DNA of 64,000 bases from a virus. Lineage: Duplodnaviria > Caudoviricetes. Each line of letters begins with the position of its first letter. Positions within the stretch are counted from its first letter, which is position 1. Positions 59,725 to 64,000 of this stretch are shown here, piece by piece. The notes under the pieces were generated by a model. It saw only the letters and a list, made by a program, of their open reading frames with translations, ran no database searches and had not been told where the DNA came from. Both the position numbers and the translations under genes were made by a program. The stretch covers positions 488-64,487 of the IMG/VR virus record IMGVR_UViG_3300017569_000129; one strand, written 5' to 3'.

Positions 59725-60012
59725 TTAAAAGCCCAAGAGTCTCAGGATGCGGCGGAACACCGTCTTTGTGGAGGGTATGCCCTTGCCGTTCTTGCGGTTG
59801 AATGACTTATGGTGCTCCGAGACTGTGAAGAAGGCTATGGAGTCAGGCCTCTTCGAGAGGTTCTGATACCAGTGGGCCGCCACACTTTTGGGAGTGCGGT
59901 CAAGCTCCTCGCCGACAATCATGAAGCACTTTGTTAGGTTTTGCGGGAAAGCCTTAACCTGACGGAGAAGCCTACTGTCTTCAGCTTCTGTCCATTTTCT
60001 TTGTTGTGTCAT
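59725..60012 (-). CDS. Myb/SANT-like HTH protein
   Basis: KWTEAED..L and RTPKSV..HW. Confidence 0.7.
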   Translation of the reverse strand: MTQQRKWTEAEDSRLLRQVKAFPQNLTKCFMIVGEELDRTPKSVAAHWYQNLSKRPDSIAFFTVSEHHKSFNRKNGKGIPSTKTVFRRILRLLGF

Positions 60013-60287
60013 ATAAATATATGTATGTAAGGCGCTCAGAGCGCCGTGTTCGCTACAGATAAAGGGGCGGTCCCCTCTCCGCCGTTGGAAAAAACGCTAA
60101 CCGAGATTGCGGCGGAGGGGGAGGCCCCGGCTTCCGGACCCAATAAAGCGAAAGTCCGGAAGTCCTCTCACGCGCCATTCACATGGGGCGGAAAGGAGGT
60201 GTTACCATTGAAAACAACCTAAACCTATGTTCTTTGAAAGAAATGAAAACCTTTAAAACAAATTTAAAACTATGAATCAATAAAGCG

Positions 60288-60361
60288 TGGCCGGTATGGG
60301 AGTCCAACCCATAGTCTGCTCTTTAGGAGAGAGCCGCTTTATGCTGTTAAGCTAACCAGCC
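60288..60361 (-). tRNA. tRNA-Arg(CCT)
   Basis: Cloverleaf: acceptor GGCTGGT/ACCGGCC, D stem GCTT/AAGC, anticodon arm GCTCT-CTCCTAA-AGAGC, T arm ATGGG-TTGGACT-CCCAT; no encoded CCA. Confidence 0.9.
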
Positions 60362-62032: not shown

Positions 62033-62344
62033 TTACAGCAAATCGACATCTTGCCAGGTGTCAGCTCCATTAGAGCAGAGCTTGTAAGAGCCAGTGTTGA
62101 GTTCGCAGACTTGGAGGTCATTCTTTCTCGCGGCTATCTCTGCCGGGGTGAGCTCTCCGAGGTTGCGGCTGAACGAGACGAAGCAGCGTGAGCCGTCGTC
62201 CTTTGTGAAGACGCAAGACTTGAAGGTCTCTCCTGTCTCTTTGTTGGCAAACTGGCCTACCTGCATTCTGCCGTGCTCTCTGGCGAAGGCTAATAATGAC
62301 GCACTTGACTTAATTCCCACGTTTACTGAATTTGTGTTTGACAT
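62033..62344 (-). CDS. Hypothetical early protein (103 aa)
   Basis: First gene of the minus-strand module; start MSNTNS. Confidence 0.7.
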   Translation of the reverse strand: MSNTNSVNVGIKSSASLLAFAREHGRMQVGQFANKETGETFKSCVFTKDDGSRCFVSFSRNLGELTPAEIAARKNDLQVCELNTGSYKLCSNGADTWQDVDLL

Positions 62345-62504
62345 AACTTTGTTTGTTTTAATTGTTTTATTTTGCGCAGGACATAACCTTGCATGTCTGA
62401 CGAGTCCTGCAAATCTCGCCTGACATGCGGGAAGCAAGTCTTTCCCCTGCTCCTCCAAAATAAAGGAGGGTGGTGTGTCCCTTAATTGCTTGCAAGATAT
62501 AGGG

Positions 62505-62590
62505 TATTGTATATATGTTATATACTATATATATACTATTAATAATGTATATAATAATATGTACGCGCGTACATTATATATAATAGGAAC
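62505..62590. other. Putative replication origin element: AT-rich tract with 16-bp palindrome ATGTACGCGCGTACAT (62559-62574)
   Basis: Non-coding, at the divergence point of transcription. Confidence 0.4.
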
Positions 62591-62714
62591 ATGAAAGGGC
62601 TTTTTAAGGTGTGTCACTTGCTGTATCTATTTTTTCACTAACATTTTAATGATAAAAATCTAAATGTTTTCTTTAGGTGCTTGCAGGTGTCATTATATAT
62701 GCGTATATTTGCAG

Positions 62715-63130
62715 CGCCTTATGTGGGCAATGCCTAAGGAACATTGTTCACATTCATCCTAAAGCCCTTCCAATAAGAGTACGCTTAGGATTAGAAGTCG
62801 GCTTATCCAGTGCACTTTACACATAGCAACTGGGGTTATCGCCGATAGAGGCAAAAAAGCTCTTGATATAAGAGACGGAGACCAGCCCAGAGGCGGCCAG
62901 AGAAAGCAGGCGTTGACTGCTAATATCAAAAAGTGAAACCACAGTGGCACAGTACGGGAGTATAAATGGTCCTAAACAATCTTCCTTATAGGAGACTTGT
63001 TTACCTTGTAAGGTGGGAACTTACATTGATGGAGATAAATGGCTTGTGAAAGCGTCAATAACCCGCCCGTCTCGAAGTTTAAGAGTAAAAACCTTGCTGA
63101 ATCTGCTTTCAGTCGGGGTGCTCTAAGGGT
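62715..63130 (+). ncRNA. Candidate large structured ncRNA (~410 nt)
   Basis: Promoter TATATTTG at 62704-62711; nested local and long-range stems; no credible ORF. Confidence 0.55.
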
Positions 63131-63453
63131 AGAAAGATTATTAAAAACCAATATGGGAAATTATTTTACATTTTGGTTTTATGGATTGTTCCAATAATTC
63201 ATAGCTTGATTGTTCACAGCTCAATCACTCAGAATTTATGGAGTTTGGAAGTTGTGATTTGCTTTAAAGTTCATCTGCTGAAAAGAAATCTCAATCAAAA
63301 TCTTAATCTACAAAACAATGTTCTCATTCCAAGCGTTTTGGACTTGGCTTGTTCAACAGGCATTGTTCTCACAGGCTTGGATATAAGGCTTGATCAGCCA
63401 GCCCATTGCTGTGCGTGTAAGGGGATGAAACCATTGCTCTTACCTGAAGGAAC

Positions 63454-64000
63454 AAAAAAAGAAGGCTGAGAGGTTTTACCCTCCCAGCCTTATTGTGTTT
63501 TACACCTAAAACTACAAAGTCGTTTGCAACACATATTAACAGAAGGGGGAACTTGCGAATCAAAGAAAGGTCTCCCTGAGCAATCACCTTTAGGATTGAT
63601 GTTTTCTCCCACAGCTAACCATCTGTTTATGTACCGAACTTTGCAGAAACTGGTGTCCTCAACATCTTGGAAAGTTATTGAGTTTTTTAGAACTTTCCCA
63701 AAGACCAATAGTCATTGCTGACTACTGGTTTCGGGAATCTCTCACTTATTCTTGCGGCTACTTGATTGCAGTGTGAGTTCCCGCAATAAGTTTCTGTGGC
63801 CTCCGCGCAACCTAATTACTCATCTTACTATTATTCAGATTTTCTTATACGTTCCTTACGGACTCTTAGGTTTGTACCACTGTGCCTTTGTGTTCCCCAT
63901 AGCAGTATCGCTCTGCGTAACTTCTACAGTTTATGGGGAAATATTACTTATTTAAACCCAAAGGACCAATCCCACAGGGTTTCCCCTGTGAGATGGTCTG
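63454..64000 (-). ncRNA. Candidate large ornate ncRNA (ROOL/GOLLD-like class), 5' end probably beyond the window
   Basis: GNRA-capped hairpins on the minus strand, long-range stems, and a terminator at 63454-63491. Confidence 0.6.

Follow-up and report, generated by a model that had tools for sequence, protein, structure and literature searches.

What kind of RNA, if any, is encoded by the last stretch of a phage contig that appears strongly structured and devoid of a convincing open reading frame (ORF)? The question is raised by a 64,000-nucleotide stretch of DNA from a virus of the Caudoviricetes, hereafter the window, which comprises bases 488–64487 of the IMG/VR record IMGVR_UViG_3300017569_000129, a viral contig of 64,487 bases with an estimated completeness of 63%. 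On the minus strand of window positions 63454–64000, the original prediction had placed a large GNRA-rich RNA of more than 500 nt resembling the ROOL and GOLLD families. Comparison with other phages indicates instead that the conserved unit is a pseudoknot domain of about 80–230 nt, and that this motif is a new, previously unannotated RNA family among phage-encoded structured RNAs and pseudoknot elements. That a conserved structured RNA is real can be held with high confidence, and it is nearly certain that the candidate RNA is neither ROOL nor GOLLD.

The minus strand of 63454–64000 folds at −181.7 kcal/mol, compared with −137.5 ± 5.8 kcal/mol for 100 shuffled versions, none of which folds as well (z −7.57), and the z-score of the plus strand is −3.38. 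The predicted hairpins CTCACAGGG-GAAA-CCCTGTGGG (63992–63971, a stem of 9 bp), TCC-GTAA-GGA and ACCAGTAGTCA-GCAA-TGACTATTGGT (63729–63704, 11 bp) are all present at their places on the minus strand, and so are the long stems CTTATTGCGG...CCGCAAGAATAAG, GGAAAGTT/AACTTTCC and CTGCAAAGT/ACTTTGTAG and a clean terminator, which consists of a 12-bp stem at 63491–63462 followed by a T-run. Complementarities on this strand include CUUAUUGCGG/CCGCAAGAAUAAG, GGAAAGUU/AACUUUCC and CUGCAAAGU/ACUUUGUAG. No ORF longer than 72 aa is found within 63454–64000 with translation table 11 or when TAG is read as Gln. Table 4 alone opens a plus-strand frame of 260 aa, which spans two TGA codons. Since TGA is the stop codon of 9 of the 24 ATG-initiated ORFs of at least 200 aa in the window, including that of the full-length DNA polymerase, and since four overlapping frames at this place have no Pfam match, the 260-aa frame is regarded as spurious and a hidden ORF arising by TAG or TGA reassignment is rejected. 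The fold z-score and the lack of an ORF together bear out a structured non-coding RNA on the phage minus strand.

A sensitive blastn search of the region against 50,697 phage records shows which part of it is shared. The match is restricted to about 44 nt (63688–63645) and occurs with 89–93% identity in 15 records, all of them from crAss-like or unclassified human-gut phages, and each of the 15 matches lies in an unannotated place or in a record without annotation. Four Suoliviridae genomes representing three subfamilies carry the match in an ORF-free gap of 1.1–2.2 kb, which comes after a syntenic hypothetical gene (190–229 aa) and is co-directional with the following small genes or tRNA-Leu. 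Alignment of these gaps reveals two conserved blocks, block 1 (AAAAAACUCAAUAACUUYCCAAGAYRUUGAGGRCACCAGUUUCU) and block 2 (AGUUUUAGGUGUAAAAYRC). The family was gathered with the pattern of block 1, in which the degenerate positions are mutually independent and to which block 2 does not belong, and this pattern is present in at least 114 viral contigs. Both blocks are found at 113 loci among the matches listed, where they are separated by an insert of 21–147 nt that exists in 79 distinct versions of 33 unrelated families. The insert lengths take all residues modulo 3, and no conserved reading frame takes the place of the RNA, because only 9 of the 113 loci have an overlapping ORF of at least 80 aa, on varying strands and with partial overlap. 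Outside the motif, none of these loci has any homology to the window, including the 310 nt upstream of block 1. When a Suoliviridae copy is used as the query, the motif is found in 17 deposited records, all from uncultured phages of human faeces; nothing is annotated under the motif in 13 annotated records, and the remaining four carry no annotation.

Base pairs were counted in an alignment of 88 distinct elements (A2) for a specified structure. S1 is a helix of 3 bp (YCC/GGR), and its pair 37–52 is C-G in 64 sequences, U-A in 24 and unpaired in none. S2, with 4 bp, is the pseudoknot helix formed by YRUU of the S1 loop with AAYR of the 3' end; its pair one is C-G in 71 sequences, U-A in 16 and U-G in 1, and its pair two is A-U in 67, G-C in 16, G-U in 4 and another combination in 1. 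The closing stem of the embedded hairpin P3 varies on both sides at all eight pairs. The covariation score is 0.313 against 0.124 after shuffling, a value of 0.313 being reached in none of 500 shuffles, and falls to 0.036–0.088 in slid controls whose partners are shifted by 1–3 columns. P2 (CACC/GGUG) is invariant in A2, and a targeted variant scan at one P2 position has returned three loci, all of which keep the pair: L260 and L261 have CAUC with GGUG (U.G) and L214, which shares its insert and flanks with L261, has CAUC with GAUG (U-A). P2 thereby shows a path from C-G through U.G to U-A. When the insert families are considered separately, S1 has the U-A state in 17 families, the C-G state in 22 and both within six, and the pseudoknot has CA/UG in 19 families and UG/CA in 12, together with a single CG/CG, a single UA/UA and wobble intermediates. 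The covarying states are not confined to two clades. Because the variable positions of the search pattern are independent and block 2 lies outside the pattern, the covariation is not an artefact of the way in which the set was collected. Covariation among homologues is thus found in S1, S2, P3 and P2.

With 20 G.U pairs against 4 A.C combinations, and with greater stability of the given strand in 68 of the 88 elements, the structure belongs to RNA and to the strand of the downstream genes. The comparative evidence shows the motif, as a predicted structure, to be an H-type pseudoknot with an embedded hairpin in loop 3, which consists of P2, a U-rich internal loop (AGUUU/UUUUA) and a replaceable P3. 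About 64 nt of the motif are nearly invariant, and many of them are unpaired. A nested 5' hairpin, CUCAAU/RUUGAG, is the minimum-energy fold and is incompatible with the pseudoknot. This hairpin shows no change on both sides and has 14 unpaired cells, with a C>U wobble in 8 sequences and U-A and U-G counts of 68 and 20, and is at best a competing conformation. A covariance model of the motif (R1) scores a single strong copy at 100 bits in the window and, in every reference gap, one at 116–126 bits; searches of whole genomes likewise give a single strong copy in cr53_1 and another in cr6_1.

The proposed ROOL/GOLLD assignment finds no support in these data. No model of Rfam 15, which includes ROOL (RF03087) and GOLLD (RF01998), matches anywhere in the window at its gathering score. 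With a threshold of E ≤ 10, positions 62500–64000 give three hits only, all on the plus strand, to eukaryotic families and with 11.6–18.7 bits, and the most compact family member, L020, yields noise only, its best score being 17.2 bits against a gathering score of 90. ROOL and GOLLD have an ornate architecture of about 580–800 nt and occur in Firmicutes prophages. The candidate is like them a phage-associated structured non-coding RNA with several GNRA loops and more than 400 nt in the window, and has a tRNA in its wider neighbourhood. However, conservation of the size of the ROOL/GOLLD architecture is not seen, being limited to blocks of 44 and 19 nt and one stem, so that the conserved core of about 80–230 nt is smaller by a factor of 3 to 10; the GNRA-capped hairpins towards the 5' end are conserved nowhere, the covariance models match at none of the thresholds tried, and the candidate resides in Bacteroidota phages. 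A diverged member of ROOL or GOLLD is therefore barely conceivable. Hammerhead, twister, twister-sister, pistol, hatchet and HDV-like ribozymes, all of them classes of self-cleaving ribozymes with Rfam families, likewise give no Rfam match, nor do preQ1-II and preQ1-III.

The features assigned to the region are listed in Table 1. The first hairpin of the region and its tail recur in locus L142 as a module of 56 nt with 96% identity, which starts 6 nt past the stop codon of a 102-aa ORF. This hairpin is most likely the intrinsic terminator of a gene beyond the end of the contig, which coincides with window position 64000, and would lie outside the candidate RNA, limiting the latter to at most about 490 nt. 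The 257 nt of the lineage-specific 5' region fold with a z-score of −4.20 on the minus strand (none of 200 shuffles as good) and −1.89 on the plus strand (11 of 200 as good), contain no minus-strand ORF of at least 30 aa and have no homologue, the GNRA hairpins included, among more than 250 loci or in the phage collection. The promoter and the 5' domain of the RNA presumably lie in this region. The P3 closing stem is formed in the window by CUGCAAAGUU (63646–63637) and GACUUUGUAG (63521–63512). An intrinsic terminator of its own, as expected of a stand-alone small RNA gene, begins by our own count 6 nt past block 2 and probably marks the 3' terminus of the RNA in the window. The motif would thus close a candidate RNA of at most about 490 nt (63945–63455) bounded by two terminators.

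Table 1. Features of the candidate RNA region and their positions in the window
Feature	Position	Strand	Remarks
GAAA-capped long hairpin with U-rich tail (to ~63950)	63964..63998	minus	Probable terminator of upstream gene; hairpin in computed fold
Lineage-specific structured 5' region	63689..63945	minus	CCCCAUA.../...UAUGGGG stem, UCC-GUAA-GGA hairpin, CUUAUUGCGG/CCGCAAGAAUAAG stem, GCAA hairpin
19-bp GCAA-capped hairpin	63740–63697	minus	In 5' region
Conserved block 1, AAAAAACUCAAUAACUUUCCAAGAUGUUGAGGACACCAGUUUCU	63645..63688	minus	89–93% identical to unannotated crAss-like gaps; single exact copy in window
A-run of block 1	63688–63683	minus	
S1, 5' strand UCC	63671–63669	minus	
Pseudoknot S2, 5' strand UGUU	63664–63661	minus	
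S1, 3' strand GGA	63658–63656	minus	
P2, 5' strand CACC	63655–63652	minus	
Variable embedded hairpin domain P3	63512..63646	minus	135 nt in window
Conserved block 2, AGUUUUAGGUGUAAAACAC	63495..63513	minus	Single exact copy in window; covaries with block 1
P2, 3' strand GGUG	63506–63503	minus	
Pseudoknot S2, 3' strand AACA	63499–63496	minus	
Intrinsic terminator	63455..63491	minus	12-bp stem, 7 G-C pairs, 6-nt loop, then CUUUUUUU; also in computed folds

The genes around the motif vary from locus to locus. Of the downstream flanks, 95 are distinct: an ORF starts within 50 nt in 32 of them, a terminator-like hairpin alone is present in 19, and 44 have neither; a terminator-like hairpin within 90 nt is present in 21. 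Within about 55 nt downstream of the motif, 39 ORFs begin, and they belong to 20 unrelated protein families. Upstream ORFs end about 0 to 940 nt from the motif, and the nearest ones differ among loci. A terminator abutting the 5' end of the motif is not a general feature, being found in 4 of 88 upstream flanks compared with 12 of 264 control windows. The motif heads a hypervariable block of small genes and lies near a strand-switch region in the reference genomes, and the same insert occurs with different flanks and vice versa. The syntenic gene upstream of the Suoliviridae gaps (L002:163-816, L003:1333-2022, L004:1545-2198 and L005:1269-1841) encodes a protein of 190–229 aa with 30–94% identity among the four and a strongly acidic C-terminal tail, for example DITDEEEE...DDDWD, and this protein of about 200 aa belongs to no Pfam or PHROG family. 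Acidic C-terminal tails recall single-strand-binding or DNA-mimic proteins. Neither this protein, which is without a family, nor the nearest upstream ORFs, which vary, provide a candidate for a protein partner of the motif.

The motif core is present in only 10 contigs among one-per-species genomes of about 185,000 prokaryote species. These contigs (L120–L129) are filed as a Thauera isolate assembly and as Treponema, Saccharibacteria, Flavobacterium, Clostridium and Bacilli metagenome-assembled genomes (MAGs), and are probably mis-binned phage contigs or contamination. Mimicry of a host RNA is rejected, since the 10 prokaryote matches are the only ones and all lie in unrelated MAGs or assemblies. 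The distribution of the matches indicates that the motif belongs to phages and not to host chromosomes, and that it is common in Suoliviridae but occurs only sporadically outside them. As far as the consulted portions of the literature on crAss-like phages and viral structured RNAs extend, no description of the motif is found. These comprise parts of PMC8040213, PMC10136315, PMC7886860, PMC10690425 and 10.1101/2021.12.02.470933. One of these sources, PMC10690425, is a survey of 10,006 candidate viral structured RNAs, in whose catalogue the motif may have an anonymous entry.

What, then, does the motif do? It is tentatively proposed, at somewhat less than an even chance, that the motif supplies the functional core of a non-coding transcript from the early region, which would dock a conserved macromolecule and have a role independent of any particular gene. 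A gene-independent role is suggested because the motif is present in a single copy where searched (the window and two whole reference genomes), is co-directional with the genes, has no link to one downstream gene, and combines an invariant core with a replaceable P3. The docking surface would consist of the approximately 64 nearly invariant nucleotides, of which many are unpaired, and the partner may be an RNA polymerase (that of the host or that of the virion), a nuclease or a defence protein. Acting in trans, the motif RNA could be a decoy; acting in cis, it could let the transcribing polymerase read through the terminator just downstream. Mutual exclusion of the 5' hairpin and the pseudoknot suggests that there may be a conformational switch. 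A bolder form of this proposal, in which the motif would define a new class of phage RNA as its catalytic or polymerase-binding core (a self-cleaving ribozyme, or a put-like RNA that makes the transcribing polymerase ignore terminators throughout the early region) and has spread horizontally among the most abundant human-gut phages with P3 as a neutral scaffold, is unlikely. Several observations count against the docking proposal. The invariance of block 1 is partly by construction, since variation was possible only in the insert, in block 2 and at the degenerate positions, and S1 and S2 are short (3 and 4 bp), each resting on one or two variable pairs. At some loci, the motif lies between an ORF that ends 7 nt before it and another that starts 14 nt after it, which leaves no room for a promoter and a terminator, and therefore such copies are not independent genes; the ORF starts within 50 nt fit a cis-acting leader equally well. 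A scan for sigma-70-type promoters upstream of the motif has given no hit, Bacteroidota promoters being outside the models of the scan. The covariance model finds no motif in the whole genomes of IAS virus, crAss001 and phi14:2 or in five relatives that share the 141-aa gene of the window, and because these phages lack it, the motif appears to be dispensable for crAss-like phages in general. The transcribed RNAs of phi14:2 may serve as an analogy only, having no similarity to the motif.

A conformation-switching cis-regulatory leader, either a riboswitch or a protein-responsive attenuator, is the main rival explanation: the pseudoknot would sequester or release the A-rich 3' tail and thereby control termination or translation initiation downstream. 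The mix of nearby start codons and terminators in the downstream flanks is typical of cis-regulators, the core combines high conservation with a large number of invariant unpaired bases, and there are two mutually exclusive folds, with mostly pairing-compatible variation in the 5' hairpin and covariation in the pseudoknot. A conserved structured domain with covariation, as an aptamer of a metabolite riboswitch would have, is thus present. However, the 20 unrelated families downstream share no pathway for a ligand, which excludes a gene-specific metabolite riboswitch, and nearly half of the flanks have neither a nearby ORF nor a terminator. Inspection reveals no convincing anti-terminator pairing for the terminator in the window, the 5' hairpin lacks changes on both sides and has unpaired cells, and no Rfam riboswitch matches. 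Such a leader is therefore doubtful, although it deserves serious consideration. An invariant pseudoknotted core with a variable peripheral stem is the usual anatomy of small ribozymes, and the motif, with its near-invariant nucleotides and freely variable P3, has this anatomy. Its position between ORFs in co-directional gene blocks would also suit a ribozyme of a new kind, self-cleaving or processing, or else a cap that resists nucleases, on an early polycistronic RNA, and the AU-rich single-stranded segment 5' to the compact fold would suit a processing site. Yet no Rfam ribozyme family matches and the order of the helices does not fit an HDV-like fold, making this explanation quite improbable. 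Nor does a tRNA adjoin the motif, unlike in the theta ribozymes as the consulted parts of PMC10879173 describe them, and an HDV-like theta ribozyme is rejected on both topology and context. An ENE-like triple helix of a U-rich loop with an A-run, or a nuclease-resistant RNA, has also been considered.

The reshuffling of flanks and inserts around the two blocks, the position of the motif at the edge of a hypervariable gene block and the nearby strand switch could also be expected of an element that acts as DNA, whether a hotspot of recombination, the boundary of a cassette, a signal for replication or packaging, or a hairpin recognised as a promoter by the virion RNA polymerase. However, the excess of G.U over A.C and the path from C-G through U.G to U-A are strand-specific, duplex DNA would not be expected to show long-range pseudoknot pairing over as much as 147 nt of insert, the single copy in the window and in two whole reference genomes is unlike promoters, and the reshuffling is explained well enough if the blocks are the sole homologous anchors in a variable region. 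A DNA-level role is therefore highly improbable, and a repeated promoter box is rejected, as the window contains the A-rich 5' motif only once, and block 2 likewise. Finally, a slippery heptamer followed by a spacer and a pseudoknot is the textbook layout of a −1 programmed ribosomal frameshift signal, and the motif has A AAA AAC followed after about 9 nt by an H-type pseudoknot, with the heptamer intact at 100 distinct loci. Against this, the frame that such a site needs stays open upstream for 4 codons in the median and for at least 50 codons at only 1 of the 100 loci, the heptamer is absent from 13 loci, and by our reading of the sequences all three forward frames close within or just past block 1. 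Since no upstream ORF reads into the heptamer in the 0 frame, a −1 frameshift site is refuted and retains next to no probability.

The phage that carries this copy has giant ORFs of 3309, 2814 and 1639 aa, a size typical of crAss-like phages, and a replication module of PolA, primase and helicases. Its PolA is 73% identical over the full length to that of IAS virus (Steigviridae), and its 1185-aa protein has its best matches, of 35–57% identity, in cr116_1, IAS virus, cr85_1 and crAss001. These two matches place the phage as a divergent Steigviridae-like crAss-like phage. Every gene from 62458 down to 18603 is on the minus strand, and the candidate RNA lies upstream on the same strand, in front of the block that holds the small genes and the replication genes. 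The window contains one tRNA, tRNA-Arg(CCT) at 60287–60361, 3.1 kb from the motif. Adjoining this tRNA is a 95-aa minus-strand ORF (59725–60012), the translation of which, judged by eye, resembles a Myb/SANT-type DNA-binding repeat at its N-terminus (WTEAEDSRLLRQV...WYQNL). The approximately 1 kb past the terminator of the motif (62459–63454) contains no convincing minus-strand ORF under table 11 and folds with a z-score of −2.68 (20 shuffles); reading TAG as Gln opens frames of 152 aa (62693–63151) and 203 aa (62033–62644) in this area. Just upstream of the 141-aa ORF (62033–62458), an AT-rich segment at 62505–62579 (GC about 0.26) has overlapping palindromes, including ATAATATGTACGCG/CGCGTACATTATAT, and two sigma-70-like minus-strand promoter hits (context 62480–62700). 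This segment could serve the downstream gene block as a promoter region or as an origin-like element.

Some further observations concern individual loci of the family. A scan with a 15-nt pattern for variants of block 2 gives nearly all chance matches, 2 of 118 loci being relevant. Locus L142 has a candidate diverged copy of the motif at about 700–800 on the minus strand, about 20 nt past the shared terminator module, with a block-2-like AGUUUUAGAUGUAAACACA (AGTTTTAGATGTAAACACA) and an apparent loop-to-tail complementarity GAAUG/CAUUC in place of YRUU/AAYR. The covariance model misses this candidate, and the motif family may be wider than the pattern-based set. The A-run of L101 is directly preceded by GGTTCGAATCC, which is like a tRNA T-arm, and the motif there may abut or truncate a tRNA gene. 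Other short modules occur at variable offsets in the Suoliviridae early region, for example in L003, L005 and L071, namely GTCTGTGAAGATAG at 21 loci, CACAGTTAGGTTCGCTGTG at 14 and ACTAACTGAACAAT at 18, and 12 of the 95 distinct flanks downstream carry a hairpin, AAGGATACAGCCATACTATCCTT, always at +22 nt. These three modules and the hairpin are absent from the window.

The crAss-like phages are described as the most abundant viruses of the human gut, and their early takeover of the cell is poorly understood; the transcriptome of phi14:2 shows abundant early non-coding RNAs. The L020 form, of about 80 nt, is a defined candidate for work on RNA structure and function. The motif is also a marker for annotation that guards against spurious ORF calls, and for evolutionary studies it is a fixed point about which cassettes of early genes are exchanged. 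Suoliviridae and the Steigviridae-like carrier have nearly identical versions of it, which points to strong selection or horizontal transfer; the 1185-aa protein of this carrier is just 35–57% identical to its nearest Steigviridae relatives in the collection.

Known systems resemble the motif in part. In the phi14:2 phage, two long intergenic regions at the early end, at the g004–g005 and g005–g006 junctions, are transcribed above most genes and persist late, by the consulted parts of 10.1101/2020.03.07.982082. Both phi14:2 and the carriers of the motif are crAss-like, and the RNA is located in an extended gap free of ORFs (about 1.7 kb in phi14:2 and 1.1–2.2 kb in Suoliviridae) that follows an early-end hypothetical gene of about 200–236 aa and runs with the early genes. 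They differ in that the covariance model finds no match in the early region or the whole genome of phi14:2, that the upstream phi14:2 protein is not detectably related to the Suoliviridae one (E 7.5), and that expression has been shown, in the parts of that source consulted, for the phi14:2 RNAs only. The theta ribozymes, which lie within 5 nt of a tRNA, are like the motif small pseudoknotted RNAs of gut Caudoviricetes (consulted parts of PMC10879173). The motif is unlike them in the distance of 3.1 kb to its nearest tRNA and in the strand order of its helices, which misfits the HDV-like fold. The preQ1-II riboswitch fold has the same topology as the motif, with an S1 hairpin, a helix S2 between its loop and the 3' tail, and an embedded hairpin. 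The T4 gene 32 autoregulatory pseudoknot, mentioned in the consulted parts of PMC10690425, is likewise an H-type pseudoknot to which the motif can be likened. At one locus in three the motif also shares with them a position immediately ahead of a start codon. Compared with preQ1-II and T4 gene 32, it has no association with one gene and its S1 and S2 are shorter. Processive antitermination by the put RNA of HK022 is brought about by two stem-loops, with no pseudoknot, that act on the host RNA polymerase. Antitermination by the crAss-like motif is pure inference; with put it would share a position in cis at the head of an early gene block, upstream of terminators, and an indifference to the genes that follow.

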